In this document: piece by piece, positions 47,930 through 57,436 of the stretch
Layout of the letters: the number at the start of each line of letters is the position of its first letter
Position numbering within the stretch: position 1 is the stretch's first letter
Origin: a bacterium
Lineage (GTDB): Bacteria > Patescibacteriota > CPR2 > UBA1875 > CAIMLA01
Length of the DNA stretch: 64,000 nucleotides
Direction: 5' to 3'
Assembly: GCA_037129835.1 (NCBI GenBank)
Contig: JBAXUE010000002.1
Location: forward strand, 2,334 to 66,333
The notes under the pieces: generated by a model
What the model saw: the letters and a program-made list of their open reading frames with translations, nothing else
The model's database searches: none
Told to the model about the DNA's origin: nothing
Made by a program: the position numbers and the translations under genes

Positions 47930-48661
47930 ATGTGGTCTTTTGTATTTATAGTCATAGTAGCCCTAGTAGTATTATATTTTTCGGCTAAATCCAAGAATAA
48001 CGATACCGAAATTATTATTGGCCAAAAAAAGGAAGTTAAAAAAATAGGGGACCGGATACAGGAAGTTCTTGACATAGAGGAAACAGAGAAGAAGACCGAA
48101 AAAGAGCATAGAGGTATTATCTCTGAGGCAAATAAGCTAGTTCGTGGCAAAAGATTAAAACAGGCAGAAAAAAAGTATCTTTCAATATTAATTAAAGATC
48201 ATAAGAATTCAAAAGCCTATCTTGGTCTTGGTAATATATATCTAGAACAAGAAGAATATTCTGGGGCGGCAGAGGCTTTTAAAAAAGTGACGGAACTTGA
48301 GCCGACAAATGATATTGCCTTTAATAATTTGGGAATGGCATTAATGAAAACAAAGAATTATCTAGAAGCAGTTACGGCCTACGAGCATGCAGTCGCTTTG
48401 GGTTCAAAGCTTTCTCATAGATATATAAACCTTGCTTTGGCAGCGGAAAAGGCAGGGGAGACAAAAAAGCAAATTAGTGCCCTTGAGCACGCCGTATCTC
48501 TTGAGCCAGACAAAACAGAATATTTGGTGGCTCTCTCTAATGTGGCTATATCTGCAGATGATAATTCAGCAGCTAAGAAAGCGCTAGAAAAACTTGTAGA
48601 AATTGAGCCGGGTAATCTGGATGCACAACGAAAGCTAGCTAGACTCCAGGGTGACAGTTAG
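47930..48661 (+). CDS. Tetratricopeptide-repeat protein with an N-terminal TM anchor
   Basis: Multiple TPR-like units (AY.GLGNIYLEQEEY..A.EAFKK...L.P.N..A.NNLG.A). Confidence 0.65.
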   Translation: MWSFVFIVIVALVVLYFSAKSKNNDTEIIIGQKKEVKKIGDRIQEVLDIEETEKKTEKEHRGIISEANKLVRGKRLKQAEKKYLSILIKDHKNSKAYLGLGNIYLEQEEYSGAAEAFKKVTELEPTNDIAFNNLGMALMKTKNYLEAVTAYEHAVALGSKLSHRYINLALAAEKAGETKKQISALEHAVSLEPDKTEYLVALSNVAISADDNSAAKKALEKLVEIEPGNLDAQRKLARLQGDS

Positions 48662-48666
48662 TTTCA

Positions 48667-48695
48667 TTGACTTTTGGCCTTTATTTTACTATAAT
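48667..48695 (+). promoter_or_regulatory. Consensus sigma70 promoter TTGACT-N17-TATAAT upstream of the tRNA-Thr/Tyr/Thr cluster
   Basis: TTGACT at 48667-48672, a 17-nt spacer, and a perfect TATAAT at 48690-48695, about 40 nt before the tRNA-Thr 5' end. Confidence 0.6.
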
Positions 48696-48736
48696 ATTCT
48701 AGTTTATTGGCTCGCAGTTAGGCTCTTTTTTTATTA

Positions 48737-48811
48737 GCCGCCTTAGCTCAGTGGTAGAGCAACTGTTTTGTAAACAGTCGGTCGTCGGTTCAAGTCCGAC
48801 AGGCGGCTCCA
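48737..48811 (+). tRNA. tRNA-Thr (anticodon TGT), CCA encoded
   Basis: Acceptor GCCGCCT/AGGCGGC. Anticodon stem ACTGT/ACAGT with loop TTTGTAA. T-loop TTCAAGT. 75 nt. Confidence 0.9.
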
Positions 48812-48910
48812 CGTCGCAATTCGTTATCTGGTTTCGCGGATAAACTAAAGTTTACCGCTTCACCATTTTACGATTGCTCCTTTCCGAGAAAAATCTACAA
48901 TTTTCCTCGG
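48812..48910 (+). ncRNA. Conserved structured trailer element downstream of tRNA-Thr(TGT) (copy A); function unknown
   Basis: Hairpin 1 GCGG[A]TAAAC-taaa-GTTTACCGC, then TTCACCA..CGATT, then hairpin 2 CCGAG[A]AAAA..TTTTCCTCGG. About 75% identical to the copy at 49211-49309, with compensatory stem changes. Confidence 0.4.
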
Positions 48911-48931
48911 CACCTAGGGATTACAACTTGA

Positions 48932-49017
48932 GGGGAGTTACCGAAGCGGTCAAACGGAGCAGACTGTAAATCTGTTGGCATACGCCTTCGGGGGTTCGAA
49001 TCCCTCACTCCCCACCA
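48932..49017 (+). tRNA. tRNA-Tyr (anticodon GTA), long variable arm, CCA encoded
   Basis: Acceptor GGGGAGT/ACTCCCC. Anticodon stem GCAGA/TCTGT with loop CTGTAAA. 86 nt. Confidence 0.9.
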
Positions 49018-49134
49018 TTATTCGCTAAAGCTACGAATGGCAAGCCAAGAGTAGATTTTGCGAATAATTTCCGTCCGAAGCTATAAGTGCGAAGGAGGAC
49101 CGAAACAAAATAACATTAAAATGTGCGCCCACGC

Positions 49135-49210
49135 GCCCACCTAGCTCAGTCGGTAGAGCGCATCCATGGTAAGGATGAGGTCATCGGTTCAATCCCGATG
49201 GTGGGCTCCA
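49135..49210 (+). tRNA. tRNA-Thr (anticodon GGT), CCA encoded
   Basis: Acceptor GCCCACC/GGTGGGC. Anticodon stem CATCC/GGATG with loop ATGGTAA. 76 nt. Confidence 0.9.
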
Positions 49211-49309
49211 CGTCATAATGCATTAGCTGGTTACGCGGATTAGCTGGAACTAACCGCTTCACCATATCACGATTACTCTTTTCCGAGAAAAACTTACGTT
49301 TTTCCTCGG
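49211..49309 (+). ncRNA. Conserved structured trailer element downstream of tRNA-Thr(GGT) (copy B); function unknown
   Basis: Hairpin 1 GCGG[A]TTAG-ctggaa-CTAACCGC (the stem sequence differs from copy A but pairing is preserved), TTCACCA..CGATT, and hairpin 2 identical in its stem to copy A. Confidence 0.4.
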
Positions 49310-49343
49310 TCATGAGGGAATAAATATAAGAATAGGAGATAAA

Positions 49344-49514
49344 ATGGCATCAAAGAAAAAAGATATCCGTCCAGTGATCACCCTTGAGTGTACTGAGTGT
49401 AAGGAGCGTAATTATGCTACTACTAAAAACACTCGGAATACCACAGCCCGCGTAGAACTTAAAAAGTTCTGTAAACGTGAGCACATTCACACATTGCACC
49501 GCGAAACAAAATAA
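49344..49514 (+). CDS. rpmG: 50S ribosomal protein L33
   Basis: 56 aa with a C..C...C..C zinc ribbon (CTECKERNY...FCKREH). A GGAGA RBS is present. Confidence 0.9.
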
Positions 49515-49519
49515 ATGGT

Positions 49520-49630
49520 TTGTCATCCTTGTCATTCGACTCTGAGGTGAGAGACACCTCATCGCTCAGACTCGAAGAGCGGAAGCAAGGATCTCTTTCA
49601 CCAGAGATTCCTGCCTTCGCAGGAATGACA
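49520..49630 (+). repeat. Palindromic intergenic element of the TGTCATCC family (copy 5, longest), between rpmG and tRNA-Trp
   Basis: TGTCATCC at the 5' end, a long internal hairpin (CGACTCTGAGGTG..CACCTCA.CGCTCAGACTCG), the GGATCTC box, a hairpin CCTGC-cttc-GCAGG, and a terminal GAATGACAG. Confidence 0.5.
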
Positions 49631-49743
49631 GTATAGTTTCTTCACAGTGGGGTCCCCGAAATCTGCAGGATTTAAGGGGAAGAGGAAGAGTCGCGAAAAG
49701 TTATAGCAACAAAGTTGCGAATACTGACAGCGGACTCTGACGA

Positions 49744-49817
49744 AGGGGCGTAGTTAAACGGTATAACGTAGGTCTCCAAAACCTTTGTTGAGGGTTCGAT
49801 TCCTTCCGCCCCTGCCA
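49744..49817 (+). tRNA. tRNA-Trp (anticodon CCA)
   Basis: Acceptor AGGGGCG/CGCCCCT. Anticodon loop CTCCAAA. T-loop TTCGATT. Discriminator G followed by CCA. 74 nt. Confidence 0.85.
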
Positions 49818-49925
49818 GATTGAGCGCCAGTTAATACCACTGGCGACCGAGGTGCCTAGGTCACCACGGAATATAACCAAGACCAACAAAAAATCTCTTA
49901 AATCTTTACGGTTTAGGGGATTTTT

Positions 49926-51197
49926 TTAGATTTCGACTACTTTACGATCACGAACCGCTAGTTTGACGTTTAAGTTTCGAATTAATTGGGTCTTTTCGGA
50001 CTCAGAACCCTTTTCGAGCACATATTTGGCATAACCTTTGATTACCTCTGTTTTGGAATATTTTTTGTTGGGATTCATGGTTTCGAGCATGTTCTCGAAC
50101 TTTTTAATGGCTTTGGCCAGTCCTGGCTCAATCGATATCTTCTTAACCGTCAGTCTACTGGAAATGATTAGTAGCTGTTCCACTAGGTCCCTTTCGGTTA
50201 TATACGGCTCGTGGCATTCATCTTTGGCGTGTCTGACACAGTGATAGTAAACATGACGGTTTTTATCCCCATTTTTAAGTTTCTTGAACTTTTCTTCACC
50301 AACCATCATTGCACCGCAACTGTAGCAGGTCAAAAATCTCCGAAATGTAAATTCCCTGGAACCCCATTTAACTCTTTTAGGGGCTACGATCTGTTTTTGG
50401 GCTTCGTCAAACAGCTCTTTGGTCACTAATGGTTCATGGGAACCTTTATACCATTTCCCGCTACCGATCGGATATTCAAACATTCCATAGTAGAAAGGAT
50501 TCTTTAGCATTAAATATATTGAGCTTAGGTTCACAAGCTTTCCTTTTCTTGAAGTGGCTCCAATGATGTCTAACCAGACTTTGAGAGTGCGGCCACTCTC
50601 ACCTTTAGCCGCTCGTTTGAACATCTCTGTGACAAACGGTCCACGTTCGGGATCAATGACAATATCATGAACCCCGGCCATCACTCGATTGTAATAACCG
50701 ATTGGCGGCATACACGGTCTCCAGCCCATCTCACATTTAGCCCTGATGCCTCTTTTTACGCTCTCGCCTCTGTTGTCGTTTTCAAGCTTGGCTTGAGAGC
50801 AGAGAATCATCAGCATAAACTTCTCGCTCGGAGTGTTTGTAAAGCTTTGGGTGAAGGTTCTGATTTTAAGAAGTTTCTTATCGTCCATCAGATCCACTAG
50901 CGAACCCAAGTCGCCAGCATTTCTTGAAAGTCGGTCGGGTGCCCAGGTAAGTAGGCTATTTACCTCGCCGCTCCTTAAATCGGTCAGTAACTGCATAAAA
51001 ACTGGTCGTTGTCCCGATTGTTTGGCGGAATAGCTTTCCTGAAGAACTTTGACGACATTAATGCCTTCTTTGACTGCTAACTCCTTCATTTCTTTGATTT
51101 GAGAATCAATTGACATCGCTTGCCGCTCATCAGACTCGGATGATTTTCTGGCGTAAAGGCAGTACTTTAATTCGACTTTATCTGCTGTATTTTCCAT
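49926..51197 (-). CDS. Large serine recombinase (resolvase/integrase family)
   Basis: N-terminal resolvase catalytic domain (YARKSSESDERQ..SIDSQ.....V.E), a recombinase domain, and a C-terminal zinc-ribbon-like CYSCG...YYHC. 423 aa. Confidence 0.8.
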   Translation of the reverse strand: MENTADKVELKYCLYARKSSESDERQAMSIDSQIKEMKELAVKEGINVVKVLQESYSAKQSGQRPVFMQLLTDLRSGEVNSLLTWAPDRLSRNAGDLGSLVDLMDDKKLLKIRTFTQSFTNTPSEKFMLMILCSQAKLENDNRGESVKRGIRAKCEMGWRPCMPPIGYYNRVMAGVHDIVIDPERGPFVTEMFKRAAKGESGRTLKVWLDIIGATSRKGKLVNLSSIYLMLKNPFYYGMFEYPIGSGKWYKGSHEPLVTKELFDEAQKQIVAPKRVKWGSREFTFRRFLTCYSCGAMMVGEEKFKKLKNGDKNRHVYYHCVRHAKDECHEPYITERDLVEQLLIISSRLTVKKISIEPGLAKAIKKFENMLETMNPNKKYSKTEVIKGYAKYVLEKGSESEKTQLIRNLNVKLAVRDRKVVEI

Positions 51198-51322
51198 CGG
51201 GGACGATGGTATCGCTGATTTGAGAGGAATGTAAGTAGAAAATTTGATTATCTTAGGTACAAAAGTGTTTATTTTCTAATCTTTTTGCTATATATTGAAG
51301 ATAGTTTAAAAAAGGAGCAAAT

Positions 51323-52528
51323 ATGCCAGGAGAAGCACCAGCACCATATGAACCAGATTATAAAGAGCACGAAGAAGTTTATGAGACTATGACGGATGAG
51401 CAGGAAAAGCTTACTAGAGAACGAGAAGCTGAACAGTTTAATCGGGAGAATGATCCCAGTATAGCGTTCGAAATGGCGCGACAGGAAGACTACGGCTACA
51501 CTCAAGTAGAGTATCTTACTCGACTTGGGGAAATTTTGGATAAAAGTGACGATGAGATAAATAAGTATGAAGCTACCCATGCTTTAGTTGACGAATATCG
51601 TGAGAAAGTGGACGAGGGGCATAGATTTGGAAGAAGTATACGCTTTAAAGACTTTGCACTGGGTAATAGCTTTACCGAAGATAGGGACAGAAGAGTATCT
51701 AAGGTAGAAACTCCAAAAGACCTTGAAGAGGCGAAGGATTGGACAAAACGACAAGCAGAAGACGCGGCTGAATATTACCAAAGAAGAGGAAGACAAGAAA
51801 AGTTTCTCCAACAGGTCGGGGATCAGCTTTATGAAGAAATAGGGCTTGAGAAAGGTCAGCCATTATCGGCGGCCGAAAATACAGAGTTTCAAAAAGAGCT
51901 TAAGGATAGAGTAGAGAAAGCGAGAGAGGAATATTCATATTCAGACCTTCTTGCGGAGGTCCACTCAATATGGGCAACATACAATGTCTTATGGGGTAGG
52001 ATTACGAATATATTGGAAGATGAAAGAGCAAAATCTCATGTTAAGGGAAGGGAGTCCAGGGATCAAGACGTTGAGCGGTTCGATCTACCATCGCTAGATG
52101 ACAGAGATACTGGCGATGCCCTTGGTGGGAAAATCGAGTATATGTACCCAGAATCTGTTGGGAATGTGATGGGAAGGCTAATCTTACGAAAAATGGACAT
52201 CACAAAGGGCAAATACGCCGGCAACCTTGTTGTTAAGGAAGAGTCTCCACTTCAAGGAAAAATCGATTCATGGGTGGAGCAATATAAGGATCTGGCTGGA
52301 CTTGGCTTTAATTTCGATAGCAAATATGGGCTTCTGGACGCTACGCTATCGAAATTACTCGAAGAAGAATTAATACAACGCTCGCTTACGCCTGAAGCTT
52401 ATAAAGATAAAGATAAGAGGGCTAAGCTTATTAGCCAAATTGGAAATGAGTATAACGCACCCAAAATGCTCGCTGGTGTAGCGGAAAACGAGCTTAAGCG
52501 TAGATTTAATAAGGAAGAGACGATATAA
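51323..52528 (+). CDS. Highly charged 401-aa hypothetical protein (cargo of the integrative element)
   Basis: An AAAGGAG RBS is present. E/K/R/D-rich and probably coiled-coil, with no recognisable catalytic motif. Divergent from the recombinase gene. Confidence 0.5.
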   Translation: MPGEAPAPYEPDYKEHEEVYETMTDEQEKLTREREAEQFNRENDPSIAFEMARQEDYGYTQVEYLTRLGEILDKSDDEINKYEATHALVDEYREKVDEGHRFGRSIRFKDFALGNSFTEDRDRRVSKVETPKDLEEAKDWTKRQAEDAAEYYQRRGRQEKFLQQVGDQLYEEIGLEKGQPLSAAENTEFQKELKDRVEKAREEYSYSDLLAEVHSIWATYNVLWGRITNILEDERAKSHVKGRESRDQDVERFDLPSLDDRDTGDALGGKIEYMYPESVGNVMGRLILRKMDITKGKYAGNLVVKEESPLQGKIDSWVEQYKDLAGLGFNFDSKYGLLDATLSKLLEEELIQRSLTPEAYKDKDKRAKLISQIGNEYNAPKMLAGVAENELKRRFNKEETI

Positions 52529-52556
52529 AGGCGCGATAACGCTACTAATACAATAA

Positions 52557-52592
52557 TAAAGAGGCGGGATAAAGTATCCTGCCTCTTTATTT
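52557..52592 (+). terminator. Strong rho-independent terminator after the 401-aa ORF
   Basis: AGAGGCGGGATA-aag-TATCCTGCCTCT (12-bp stem with one G.U) followed by TTATTTT. Confidence 0.75.
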
Positions 52593-52895
52593 TGGCTAAG
52601 CTAGGGGATACTCGATGTACCCCGCTAGCCAGTGAGACAATTACAAAACTCTTTTTATAGTGTTCCAACTGTTCCAGTCCCACACATTTACGCTTAAAAA
52701 TGAGACACTGACACAAATACGCTTAATAACTGTCTCATTTGTCTCATTTTGTGCTTAAATCTTTAAAAAAATGGTACAGTCCGAAATGTCGTAGGGTGTG
52801 TACCATTTTGTACCAATTTGTACTAAAATAGCCTATGGGTTCTTGAGCGAAGTGCTCTGCCAAAATATAACAAAATAAATGAATCATTTAAAAGA

Positions 52896-52924
52896 TTGAC
52901 AAAAAGCCTAAATTTGAGTAGAAT
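52896..52924 (+). promoter_or_regulatory. Consensus sigma70 promoter TTGACA-N17-TAGAAT for secE-nusG
   Basis: TTGACA at 52896-52901, a 17-nt spacer, and TAGAAT at 52919-52924, about 50 nt upstream of the secE ATG. Confidence 0.55.
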
Positions 52925-52973
52925 ATTATTGTATTAAGAAGCCGAGAGGCTTTTTTAAAATCCAGAGGAATTT

Positions 52974-53174
52974 ATGAAAAAGTTTTTTGGACATATCATC
53001 GGATATTTTAGAGAGTCACTTGTCGAGTTGTCGAAGGTCGTTTGGCCTACTCGAAAACAAGTATTAGAAATGACTTTAGCTGTGTTGATTTTAGCGGCCT
53101 TTATAGCTACACTGCTTGGGGTTTTCGATTATGGTCTGCAGGAAGCATTGAAACAGTTGCTTAAGTTGAAATAA
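52974..53174 (+). CDS. secE: Preprotein translocase subunit SecE
   Basis: 66 aa with the SecE motif ELSKVVWPTRKQ followed by a single TM helix. Confidence 0.85.
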   Translation: MKKFFGHIIGYFRESLVELSKVVWPTRKQVLEMTLAVLILAAFIATLLGVFDYGLQEALKQLLKLK

Positions 53175-53188
53175 TAGGAGTATATACT

Positions 53189-53731
53189 ATGTCAAAACAA
53201 GTTAATGAAGGTCGTAATTGGTACGTAATCCATACTTACTCTGGATATGAAGAAAAGGTAGCAGAAAATCTAAAACAGAGAATTAAGTCTTTGAACATGG
53301 ATGACAAGATTTTTGATGTTATTGTACCCAAAGAAAAGACTATCGAGATAAAAAATGGTAAACGAAAAACAGTAGAAAAGCGGATATTTCCTGGTTATGT
53401 AATGGTAGAAATGATTGTTACAGATGATAGTTGGTATGTTGTCAGGAATACACCACAAGTTACAGGCTTTATTGGTTCGGGTACAAATCCTATTCCAATG
53501 AGCGAACCAGAAGTTTCCTTGATTCAGAGAAGAATGGGCATCGAAGAACCTAAGTTCCAAATCGATTTAGCCAAAGGAGACCTAGTTAATATAAATGACG
53601 GTCCTTTCAAGGGATTTGATGGCGTAGTAGATAATGTAGACCAAGATAAGGGTAAAATAAAGGTTATGGTCAACATGTTTGGTAGAGAAACTCCGGTGGA
53701 GCTAGATTCATTACAAGTAAAAAAGGTATAA
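53189..53731 (+). CDS. nusG: Transcription termination/antitermination factor NusG
   Basis: NGN domain (WYVIHTYSGYEEKV) and a C-terminal KOW (GDLVNINDGPFKGFDGVV). Confidence 0.93.
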   Translation: MSKQVNEGRNWYVIHTYSGYEEKVAENLKQRIKSLNMDDKIFDVIVPKEKTIEIKNGKRKTVEKRIFPGYVMVEMIVTDDSWYVVRNTPQVTGFIGSGTNPIPMSEPEVSLIQRRMGIEEPKFQIDLAKGDLVNINDGPFKGFDGVVDNVDQDKGKIKVMVNMFGRETPVELDSLQVKKV

Positions 53732-55790: not shown

Positions 55791-56303
55791 ATGGTCGAAG
55801 TAAAAAAGGAAGAAAAGAAAAATAATAATATACTAATTGTTTTATTGGCAATATTACTGACCACTCTATTGGTCGGTGGCACCACTTGGTATTTTATGGA
55901 CCAAAATGCAAAAAATGAAAAAATCACAACAGATGCGGCGATTTCAAAATTAAACAAAAAAATCACCACTTCTGAGAAAAACAATAAAAATACGGTTACG
56001 CCAACTCCTACTGTTTCGGCTGCGTTGACCCCAACACCGACCACCGCCAAAGACACCGTAGAAGCGCTAAGAACCTTCTGCCAGGCTAATGGAGCCCAAA
56101 ATGCCGTTACGGGTGGGATTAGTTACATGGAGTCAGCAAATGGGATTTATGGCAATTGTAGTTTGGAAAATGCAATGTTAATTTCAACAAACGTTAATGG
56201 AACCTGGACGAAGATTTATACAGGTAACGGCGTTATCGAGACCGCCCTTTGTGACCAATATAAGATCCCAAATAAAATGAGCGGTGGTACTTGCAATTAC
56301 TAG
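55791..56303 (+). CDS. Membrane-anchored secreted protein, paralog 1 (TM anchor, Thr/Pro linker, C-terminal 4-Cys domain)
   Basis: N-terminal TM helix, a TPTPT-rich linker, and a C-terminal domain with 4 Cys ending ...YKIPNKMSGGTCNY. An AAGGAGGGGG RBS is present. Paralogous to 56322-56858. Confidence 0.7.
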   Translation: MVEVKKEEKKNNNILIVLLAILLTTLLVGGTTWYFMDQNAKNEKITTDAAISKLNKKITTSEKNNKNTVTPTPTVSAALTPTPTTAKDTVEALRTFCQANGAQNAVTGGISYMESANGIYGNCSLENAMLISTNVNGTWTKIYTGNGVIETALCDQYKIPNKMSGGTCNY

Positions 56304-56321
56304 AGAAAAAATAGGAGTATT

Positions 56322-56858
56322 ATGACCAAAGAACTAGAAACTACAAAAAAAATAATAGATAGACGTAAAATGACTGTTGTTGTAGGAATAACTACAGTAG
56401 CGGTGGCTTTAGTTTGTGGTGCAGTTTGGTATTATATGGCACAGCAAGAAAATTTTTCTACCGAAAAAACTAAAAAAGAAACAGTCATTTCGAAAGATAG
56501 CATAATAGTAACAGCGTCGGTAACACCTACAACTACAATATCTCCTTCAGGTACTCCGTCGCCAACACCAACGATTAAAACAAATACTAATAGCGCTCAA
56601 GCGTTAAAAGCATTTTGCCAAGAGAATGGTGGTTCAAGTGATGCGACGGATGGAATAAGTTATATGGAGACGGCAAATGGTGTTTATGGTATCTGTACTA
56701 TGGTAAATGGGAAAACCTTAGAAAGCACAACATTTATAGCCGCTGAGATAAGTGGTGTATGGACTAAGGTTTGGAATGGGAATGGTGTGATTGATCTTAC
56801 TACTTGTAATAAATATAAGATCCCAAATAAAATGAGCGGTGGGGCCTGTAACTACTAA
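56322..56858 (+). CDS. Membrane-anchored secreted protein, paralog 2
   Basis: Same architecture as paralog 1. The C-terminal domain aligns (AFCQENGG...ISYMETANGVYG.C......CNKYKIPNKMSGGACNY). Confidence 0.7.
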   Translation: MTKELETTKKIIDRRKMTVVVGITTVAVALVCGAVWYYMAQQENFSTEKTKKETVISKDSIIVTASVTPTTTISPSGTPSPTPTIKTNTNSAQALKAFCQENGGSSDATDGISYMETANGVYGICTMVNGKTLESTTFIAAEISGVWTKVWNGNGVIDLTTCNKYKIPNKMSGGACNY

Positions 56859-56875
56859 AAAATATAGGGGGAATT

Positions 56876-57436
56876 ATGCTAAAAGTAAAAGATACTTCAA
56901 AAAATAAAATTAACTGGCGAATAATCGTCATAACTGTAGTGGTTGCCTTAGTAACTGCTGGCGCAGTAGGTGGCGGTGTCTGGTATAATATGGACCAAAA
57001 TGAAAAAAATGCTAAGACGGCAAACGAAAAAGAATTAGCAACTCTTAAAAGTCAAATTAAAGACACTCCTACGATTACGCCAACTTCTAACCCGACACCT
57101 ACTTCAACATCAAAAGCCGATATCGTTCTTACTGATAGTGATTATTTAAATTTTTTAACTATAAATAAATCAGGATGGGTAAAGACAGATTCTTATGTTG
57201 CGCCTATTATATCGAAAAATGATGGAACTTGGGCTATTACATCTCCGTTGCCAATTTTATATGACACCACGAGCGGGTATCACATTCCTGGCATGGGTGG
57301 TTCTATCTATGTTTGGCATAAAGTAAGTGGTTCATGGGAATTTGTTGGACAAGGGGGAGAGGGTGGATATGATGATGCAGTAAAGGCAGTTTATTCCCAA
57401 ATTCCCATCACTGTCATTCCAGAAAGTAGTCGCTAG
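56876..57436 (+). CDS. Membrane-anchored secreted protein, paralog 3 (same anchor and linker, different Cys-free C-terminal domain)
   Basis: TM anchor and a TPT linker (DTPTITPTSNPTPTSTSK), followed by a distinct Gly/Trp/Tyr-rich domain. An AGGGGGAAT RBS is present. Confidence 0.65.
   Translation: MLKVKDTSKNKINWRIIVITVVVALVTAGAVGGGVWYNMDQNEKNAKTANEKELATLKSQIKDTPTITPTSNPTPTSTSKADIVLTDSDYLNFLTINKSGWVKTDSYVAPIISKNDGTWAITSPLPILYDTTSGYHIPGMGGSIYVWHKVSGSWEFVGQGGEGGYDDAVKAVYSQIPITVIPESSR

Follow-up and report, generated by a model that had tools for sequence, protein, structure and literature searches.

Small cargo islands beside transfer RNA (tRNA) genes have been described for tyrosine integrases, as in the Islander-type islands (PMC4383910), and the preprint on the tycheposons of Prochlorococcus outlines tRNA-adjacent cargo islands in streamlined genomes (bioRxiv 10.1101/2020.12.28.424599). 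tRNA genes are explicitly stated not to be known as targets of serine integrases (PMC4383910), and the largest survey of large serine recombinases (LSRs) considered protein-coding targets only and mentions tRNA nowhere (PMC10083194). The TIGER paper placed 14 of 297 serine-integrase islands, found computationally, at t(m)RNA genes, a result described there as not reported before and as still requiring proof by experiment (PMC7192596). A serine recombinase is also used by phiRSM, whose phage (attP) and bacterial (attB) attachment (att) sites share a 13-nt core that begins TGG and reads as the reversed 3' end of tRNA-Ser; its attP lies next to the gene for the recombinase (PMC3816273). We found no description in the literature of tRNA-targeting large serine integrases or of the Patescibacteria islands reported here. 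In this work we analyzed a 64,000-nt stretch of DNA (the window, in which all positions are given) from a member of the Patescibacteriota (CPR2; UBA1875; CAIMLA01; assembly GCA_037129835.1, contig JBAXUE010000002.1), where positions 49818-52862 are very probably a site-specific integrative element, or mini genomic island, of 3,045 bp that was inserted by its own LSR at the 3' end of a tRNA-Trp gene.

The features that define the insertion are as follows.

49744 to 49817, + strand: tRNA-Trp gene with anticodon CCA and an encoded 3' CCA (ARAGORN; Rfam tRNA, 63.3 bits).
49812 to 49817, + strand: left core copy CTGCCA at the attL junction, comprising the last two acceptor bases, the discriminator and CCA (empty-site comparison with contigs L010 and L016).
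49818 to 52862: inserted element, including one core copy (empty-site comparison; contig L021 is colinear with the circularised element).
49926 to 51197, − strand: LSR of 423 residues with a YARKS motif (Ser19) (Pfam, PHROG, structure alignment).
52857 to 52862, + strand: right core copy CTGCCA at the attR junction (empty-site comparison).

An earlier note on this DNA had proposed a small integrative element with an LSR between tRNA-Trp and secE and had named beforehand, as a check, the search for an empty site at this junction. Contigs encoding identical rpmG, secE and NusG proteins were looked up and aligned to the window, and in two contigs from sibling strains (98-99% identical) the 3' end of tRNA-Trp runs straight into the upstream region of secE. 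L010 (ERZ27300176; 99.2% identical over 1.3 kb) begins with GATTCCTTCCGCCCCTGCCA, the last 20 nt of tRNA-Trp, followed directly by AAATATAACAAAATAAATG, which is the window from 52863 onward (AAATATAAC), and L016 (ERZ27300140; 98% identical) holds the whole tRNA-Trp and ends with CCCCTGCCA followed by AAATA (CCCCTGCCAAAATA at the contig end). The two are identical across their 25-nt overlap, and a third contig, L009, begins at TGCCAAAATAT, consistent with an empty site. The filled site is present in five independent assemblies (ERZ27300174, ERZ27300165, ERZ27299960, SRR7053572 and JGI 3300021601), in the first of which the window lies on a 372-kb metagenome contig (k141_20016). The junctions of L010 and L016 set the bounds of the element at 49818 and 52862, so the span of 49818-52895 given by the earlier note was exact at its start and overshot by 33 nt of native chromosome at its end. 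The tRNA-Trp is the target gene, with its acceptor and T-arm forming the chromosomal (B) half-site; it has no mismatch to L016, is identical in filled and empty strains, and is intact.

A second line of evidence comes from a relative. The closest homologue of the recombinase (P0003, 90% identical) is carried on L021, a 2,264-bp contig from an unrelated metagenome (JGI 3300040967), in which the recombinase stop codon is followed by the left-end sequence, TGGCAG and the right-end sequence. This is the junction predicted for a circularised window element (...GAGCGAAGTGCT CTGCCA GATTGAGCGC...). BLAST against the circularised element gave a single colinear match, in which L021 718-2264 corresponds to the window from 51237 down to 49818 and then from 52862 down to 52736, with 83% identity overall; the 129 nt beyond the core (the 52736-52862 segment) are 90% identical, compared with 82% for the recombinase gene. 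As read from these alignments, the window holds an insertion bounded by attL and attR, the sibling strains keep attB, and a relative carries an attP-type junction.

Pfam bore out the domain reading of the minus-strand recombinase, whose gene ends 108 nt from the 3' end of tRNA-Trp. The protein matches Resolvase (PF00239, E 6e-25, residues 14-158), Recombinase (PF07508, E 1.3e-12, residues 183-270) and, barely above the cut-off, the zinc ribbon Zn_ribbon_recom (PF13408, 25.6 bits against 25.3), and residues 340-423 are, judged by length alone, sufficient for a coiled coil. It is also a match to the integrase family PHROG 95 (E 4e-62), and residues 15-380 align with the SPbeta integrase structure 9dxh, with YARKS opposite the catalytic YLRRS. 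There are more than 8,000 homologues. All curated NCBIfam equivalogs score below their cut-offs, the best being CcrB (111 against 900 bits, E 5.6e-32), followed by XisF (76 against 375) and IS607 (37 against 110); given the distance of the CcrB score from its cut-off, the recombinase is not a Ccr. An IS607-family serine transposon, with a small transposase that bears an N-terminal MerR-like DNA-binding domain and has low target specificity, was also rejected, as the match (36.9 bits) covers the catalytic domain only and the clade is specific for tRNA ends. Judged by its domain content and the logic of its att sites, the enzyme is a true LSR.

Several points weigh against this account of the locus. 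The evidence for the empty site sits at contig ends, with 20 nt on the tRNA side in L010 and 5 nt on the secE side in L016, and it is the agreement of the two that joins them. L021 has no terminal overlap of at least 15 nt, so that a closed circle is unproven and a tandem array would give the same junction; in either case, site-specific joining of both ends is required. The attP junction of the exact window element was not found, the 28-nt attP junction has no match in IMG/VR, and there is no direct evidence of excision for this copy, nor was a candidate excision (directionality) factor identified. The compositional signal is weak (GC 42.0% in the element and 39.2% in the window, sd 1.6%). The arms show little dyad symmetry, limited in the window to GTGCT-N11-AGCGC, whose spacing is odd and whose second half is AGCAC in the family consensus, and about one third of the relatives with enough flanking sequence have no tRNA within 2.5 kb. 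All of the evidence is computational.

Some ends of public metagenome contigs are artefacts because adapters were left untrimmed before assembly: the last 16 nt of L004 and the last 33 nt of L013 are Nextera adapter (CTGTCTCTTATACACATCT...). The first 49 nt of L004, its divergent left end, have no match elsewhere, and the ends of both contigs were treated as unreliable. Logan contig breaks at 49520 and 52726-52755 do not coincide with the junctions.

In the mechanism that we propose, the LSR of the element would recombine attP on a circular form (P arm, CTGCCA, P' arm) with the chromosomal attB, consisting of the tRNA 3' end and the spacer that follows it. Exchange would take place within the 6 shared bp, namely the last two acceptor-stem bases, the discriminator and CCA, and would leave the element flanked by CTGCCA. 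Exchange within these 6 bp would account for the intact tRNA, the untouched secE promoter and the flanking CTGCCA copies, and since nothing is disrupted the insertion would be nearly neutral for the host. Catalysis by the element's own recombinase is the step that we infer, and the element may still be able to excise. Pfam and PHROG scans found no transfer, replication, packaging or capsid genes among its two genes, and for this reason we assume, as a guess, that host DNA uptake or a helper element moves it between cells.

The recombinase is part of a wider family. We assembled 161 relatives, comprising 160 loci from scans of metagenome and GTDB genome contigs together with L019, and those that are named are nearly all Patescibacteria (Saccharibacteria, Microgenomates, Peregrinibacteria, Paceibacterota, Doudnabacteria and others). 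Of the 111 loci whose sequence extends 2.5 kb or more past the recombinase stop codon, 71 have a tRNA gene within 2.5 kb of that codon. All 71 of these tRNAs are convergent with the recombinase and none is on the same strand, and no tRNA was found within 2.5 kb upstream in any of the 106 loci with enough upstream sequence. The target is most often tRNA-Gln (40 loci) or tRNA-Ser (17), followed by Asn (5), Met, Gly, Trp and Arg (2 each) and Glu (1). The far ends of these elements were sought as the last 6 nt of the target tRNA directly before the arm AGCACTYCGCTCAAGAACCC, a score reached at 690 of 230,225 background positions before the 6-mer is required. Counting the window element, ten elements of 2.7-10 kb could be delimited; the others are L019 (2,703 bp), L027 (3,197), L126 (3,568), L104 (4,108), L108 (5,229), L023 (6,078), L038/L122 (6,137), L131 (9,085) and L119 (10,236). 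In all those checked by eye (the window, L019, L104, L108 and L038), identity with the tRNA ends after exactly 6 nt. The core 6-mer follows the target, being CTGCCA for Trp, GAACCA, GAGCCA or CAGCCA for Gln, GAGCCA for Asn and CTACCA for Met, and the arms are constant across targets even among recombinases that are 75-78% identical, while the three bases before CCA vary with the target. To judge from these loci, the element is one member of a large clade of serine integrases in Patescibacteria, by which small cargo islands are inserted at tRNA 3' ends, and it is this wider clade that is of more interest than the single locus.

Additional tRNA fragments are found outside some of these elements. 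Copies of 18-22 nt of a tRNA 3' end, followed by GC-rich sequence, lie about 110-190 nt outside the right end in L027 (4775-4930), L038 (1731-1885), L131 (147-335) and L144 (6662-6775). Such repeats were rejected as far boundaries, lying about 150 nt outside the conserved P arm; they resemble remains of earlier integrations at that tRNA, and their presence beside several elements implies that tRNA sites are used repeatedly. In L030, about 1.35 kb after the recombinase stop codon, a partial second tRNA-Gln 3' end (TTCGAATCCCTCATCCCCAGCCA) stands 11 nt past the full tRNA and before the element arm, which suggests a tandem or successive insertion. Recombinases P0006 and P0016, which share 77% and 74% identity with the query, have the same listed longest contig of 506,976 bp, and a single genome may thus hold two such elements, each at its own tRNA; the locus inspected is that of P0006, L019 (JGI contig of 506,899 bp).

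The attachment arms and the repeats beside them are arranged in the window as follows.

49818 to 49860, + strand: P' arm, the element side adjoining the tRNA, consisting of GATTGAGC and then the inverted repeat GCGCCAGT-N7-ACTGGCG (49824-49845).
49888 to 49926: weak, A/T-flanked hairpin after the recombinase stop codon (inverted repeat I8; -5.6 kcal/mol, z -1.9), different in sequence in L004 and L021.
52682 to 52823: repeats inside the right end, comprising two 19-nt direct repeats (52682-52729), AATGAGACA/TGTCTCATT motifs at 52699, 52731 and 52740, and GTACAAATTGGTAC-type tandem units at 52800-52823.
52837 to 52856, − strand: P arm, the element side of the right end, AGCACTTCGCTCAAGAACCC when read away from the core and unique in the window.

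The hairpin that the earlier note had placed directly after the tRNA is real (49824-49845, -12.3 kcal/mol, z -4.65), with coordinates one base away from those given there. It is retained in L021 through the paired changes CCAGT/ACTGG to CTAGT/ACTAG, and because these preserve the pairing it can be taken as a genuine, conserved component of the arm. Among relatives at least 54% identical, the P'-arm consensus abutting the tRNA end is CCA followed by (A/G)(T/A)T(T/A)GAGCACCAAAGGTG(A/T)(G/C)CGTA, and its palindrome CACC-AAA-GGTG corresponds to the longer inverted repeat of the window. The P arm matches at 16-20 of 20 positions, right after the tRNA-matching 6-mer, in L019, L023, L027, L104, L108, L119, L126, L038 and L131. 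Two or three tandem AAATG(G/A)(T/G)ACA units occur 30-60 nt from the core inside this arm in both subclades, and the right-end repeats are probable binding sites for an accessory protein. The weak hairpin at 49888-49926 is a possible two-way terminator.

With so little dyad symmetry between the arms, and that at an odd spacing, sequence confines the crossover dinucleotide to the 6-bp block CTGCCA and no finer. Since attP and attB differ on either side of these six shared bases, strand exchange must fall within them. Two positions are plausible. The crossover may lie in CCA, the weak dyad GTGCT-N11-AGCGC being centered on the terminal A, or it may lie at the first two bases of the block, in which case the element would supply the discriminator and CCA; the latter would explain why the four further bases always match the target. 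The P arm also has GAACC in the same register as the GGTTC of the tRNA T-arm, on the complementary strand, which suggests that the enzyme may read features common to tRNA genes, easing jumps between tRNA species.

The remainder of the element is occupied by a single gene and its flanking signals.

51198 to 51322: divergent intergenic region, of which 51198-51237 (the 40 nt by the recombinase start) is conserved backbone and the remainder belongs to the cargo module.
51323 to 52528, + strand: open reading frame (ORF) ORF401, encoding a highly charged, predicted all-helical orphan of 401 residues, divergent from the recombinase.
52555 to 52591, + strand: ORF401 terminator, a strong hairpin and T-run with 17-nt arms that are 94% complementary (-25.8 kcal/mol, z -7.1).

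The earlier description of a divergent 401-residue orphan with a strong terminator holds, as ORF401 has no match in Pfam, PHROG, PADLOC or NCBIfam. A search of 5.8 billion proteins and an exhaustive search of 1.84 billion representatives gave only two homologues, P0002 (81% identical) from the former and P0123 (31%) from the latter. The AlphaFold model, built from this three-sequence alignment, is all-helical with a pLDDT of 58, and Foldseek against PDB and BFVD returned nothing below E 0.9; given the low quality of the model, these fold searches are uninformative rather than negative.

Two contigs from the same metagenome (JGI 3300040967) point to a modular element. In L021, homology stops at window position 51237, and the cargo position holds an unrelated ORF of 196 residues, on the same strand as the recombinase, in place of ORF401. 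L018, a 3.6-kb contig with no recombinase, carries the P0002 gene at 147-1383 (81% amino acid and 78% nucleotide identity to ORF401) adjoining a gene for a GGDEF-domain protein, in DNA that is more GC-rich by eye; its homology with the window begins at 51277 and is restricted to ORF401 and about 45 nt upstream. Since the homologue in L018 stands without a recombinase, the cargo gene appears to move independently of it. On this evidence the conserved backbone would consist of the two att arms, the right-end repeats and the recombinase gene together with some 40 nt ahead of it, and a cargo slot of about 1.5 kb would hold ORF401 with its own start region and terminator. We treat ORF401 as an exchangeable accessory gene that is not needed for integration, because the slot is swapped in L021 and the homologue stands alone in L018.

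This arrangement bears on the possibility that the element is an integrative plasmid, whose excised circle replicates itself with ORF401 as initiator and the right-end tandem repeats as its binding sites. The repeats are helically phased, lie near one end and are conserved family-wide, above the level of the recombinase gene itself, and the attP-type junction of L021 is what a free circle would give. Nevertheless, ORF401 matches no replication protein family and, in the uninformative fold searches, no such fold, L021 keeps the repeats while an unrelated ORF takes the place of ORF401, the smallest relative (L019) has only ORFs of 74, 84 and 132 residues beside its recombinase, and L021 is not demonstrably circular. 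We regard a replicating plasmid as unlikely.

ORF401 might instead be a recombination directionality factor that enables excision rather than cargo. It is the only other gene of the element and is transcribed divergently from the recombinase, and among serine integrases such factors are varied and in many cases belong to no assigned family (see PMC12286644). Moreover, ORF401 (51323-51364) and the 196-residue ORF of L021 (46-87) share an N-terminal MPGE-P-Y-PD motif and their first 11 coding nucleotides, and P0123 begins MPHEG. The two proteins are otherwise unrelated (BLASTP E 0.045), however, although they adjoin recombinases that are 90% identical, the 81% identical homologue in L018 lies beside the GGDEF gene with no recombinase on its contig, and 401 residues is large for such a factor. 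The MPGE motif is also absent from ORFs of at least 100 residues in the loci of all other relatives with comparable downstream sequence, and as a family-wide cargo signature it was rejected; the shared motif could be due to chance, a common translation start region or a recombination joint. An excision function for ORF401 is accordingly rated as quite unlikely, and we retain the reading of this gene as exchangeable cargo.

The earlier note had also suggested a prophage remnant, and more generally the locus might be the decayed remainder of a prophage or conjugative element, in which a larger ancestor has become fixed after losing everything but the integrase and a single other gene. The very small size, the missing transfer, replication and capsid genes and the match to phage integrase family PHROG 95 would fit such a history. 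Against this, the element is present or absent among strains that are 98-99% identical, with an empty site free of scars, and its recombinase ORF and both arms are intact. L021, which has the attP-type junction, is equally small (at least 2.26 kb, with a recombinase and the 196-residue ORF), and so are the delimited elements of 2.7-10 kb with intact arms. The scanned cargo of the relatives includes Fic/DOC, a SAM methyltransferase, a cation-efflux protein, a DsbA-like thioredoxin, a ParB-DNA methylase fusion, DUF4268 and DUF5655, with no match to any phage structural family, and only 2 relatives were found among 2.9 million viral contigs in IMG/VR. We consider a remnant very unlikely, and an outright prophage was rejected, the only PHROG match in the two-gene element being the integrase itself.

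Finally, almost no credence can be given to the proposal that the bounds of the element are set by the 12-bp direct repeat CTTAAATCTTTA, which is indeed exact at 49897-49908 and 52754-52765, confined to these two places in the window and moderately unusual when flank is compared against flank (1.1%), since the true junctions (49817/49818 and 52862/52863) lie 80 and 97 nt outside the copies, neither L021 nor L004 keeps the repeat, and the same region holds an unrelated exact repeat of 13 nt. Both 12-bp copies are inside the element, the left one in the loop of the weak hairpin at 49888-49926, and as an att core the repeat was rejected. As a control, 13% of 3.3-kb tiles of the window contain some exact direct repeat that measures 12 nt or more and whose copies are separated by 2 kb or more. 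The 13-nt repeat, AACAAAATAAATG, occurs at 49505-49517, overlapping the rpmG stop codon, and at 52869-52881, 7 nt past the right junction; both copies are native, the right one being present at the empty site, and it is probably due to chance in A-rich DNA.

The chromosomal surroundings of the element are as follows.

49344 to 49514: rpmG (gene call).
49515 to 49743: spacer of 229 nt between rpmG and tRNA-Trp.
52896 to 52924, + strand: secE promoter TTGACA-17-TAGAAT, with 11 of 12 consensus matches, also present in the empty-site contigs L009 and L010.
52974 to 53174: secE, followed by nusG (53189-53731), rplK and rplA.

A non-coding stretch of 334 nt follows ORF401 on the way to secE. A near-consensus promoter for secE is present, as had been claimed, but it is native chromosome outside the element, neither supplied by the insertion nor touched by it. 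The best named matches of RpoA from the window are to proteins of the Patescibacteria group (70%), Saccharimonadia (66%) and CPR2 (65%), which agrees with a Patescibacteria (CPR) host. An Rfam scan of 48500-53500 found four tRNAs only above threshold. The spacer at 49515-49743 has an unusually stable predicted fold (-82.2 kcal/mol, z -3.6, equalled by 0 of 200 shuffles), but has no Rfam match, and neither the window nor the fetched loci hold a second copy. Strains that are 92-98% identical conserve it to their contig limits (whole in L016; L012 ends at 49647 and L015 at 49628), and a structured leader or a so far undescribed RNA would be possible readings. Further downstream, ribosomal protein L1 (54351-55253) is 300 residues long, and the part that resembles canonical L1 is preceded by some 70-100 additional N-terminal residues in which Lys, Glu, Thr and Val are abundant. 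Two 95-nt segments (56257-56350 and 56812-56904) are 80% identical and fall in three consecutive ORFs of 170, 178 and 186 residues, without Pfam match, that follow a desulfoferrodoxin gene and look like tandem paralogues.

The clade runs counter to the general view that tyrosine integrases, but not serine integrases, target tRNA genes, and all four types of att junction are available in public data. It offers a compact recombination module, a 423-residue enzyme with attP and attB of known sequence, from a huge phylum of which most members are uncultured and for which genetic tools are very scarce. As host factors are usually dispensable for serine integrases, the module is a plausible integration tool for Patescibacteria. 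Few self-contained integrative elements are smaller than these, which illustrate gene movement in extremely reduced genomes. As a bolder and tentative proposal, it is a real possibility that this is the first LSR clade dedicated to tRNA genes, in which the enzyme docks on CCA and the T-arm GGTTC, which tRNA genes encoding their own CCA have in common and of which the latter is mirrored in register by GAACC in the element's arm, and switches between tRNA species through the three bases before CCA. The tandem repeats may then control direction without a classical factor, and cassettes of 3-10 kb would be a main route of gene gain in Patescibacteria. If the matching change of the 3-nt core is real, it would give integrase engineers a simple retargeting rule, and if the whole proposal is true the clade would be a naturally retargetable integrase platform for a phylum with almost no genetic tools.

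Among the described systems, phiRSM also combines a serine recombinase, a core that is a reversed tRNA 3' end and an attP by the recombinase gene. The phiRSM enzyme is small and resolvase-like, without the Recombinase and zinc-ribbon domains that are both present here, and phiRSM is a filamentous phage of Ralstonia with a core of 13 nt, whereas the core here is 6 nt and there are no virion genes; on the domain content and the absence of phage genes, a phiRSM-type integrase was rejected. Islander-type islands and tycheposons share with this element an integrase gene at the tRNA-adjacent end, variable cargo and streamlined genomes, but their enzyme is a tyrosine integrase with a different chemistry. 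In Islander islands, moreover, the tRNA gene is split and then made whole by a carried copy of tens of its bases, whereas here 6 nt are shared and the tRNA body is native. With a serine recombinase and only 6 nt duplicated, an Islander-type island was likewise rejected. SCC (CcrA/B/C) resembles the present elements in being cargo cassettes without transfer genes that are moved by LSRs at the 3' end of a conserved housekeeping gene; here, however, the target is a tRNA rather than rlmH, a single recombinase replaces the pair, the size is about ten times smaller and the host phylum is another. The LSR integrases (phiC31, Bxb1, A118, TP901-1 and SPbeta SprA) have the same catalytic serine and recombinase domains, followed by a zinc ribbon, which here scores only just above its cut-off, and a C-terminal helical region, for which the present enzyme would have the length. 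They too place a simple attP next to the gene for the integrase, with a core of identity that is short and junctions that lack long arm-type sites. Unlike these, the present enzyme is short and targets a tRNA 3' end instead of a protein-coding gene, and its clade moves cargo islands of 2.7-10 kb that are not phages, with conserved tandem repeats 30-60 nt inside one arm and a constant 6-nt identity that tracks the target tRNA.

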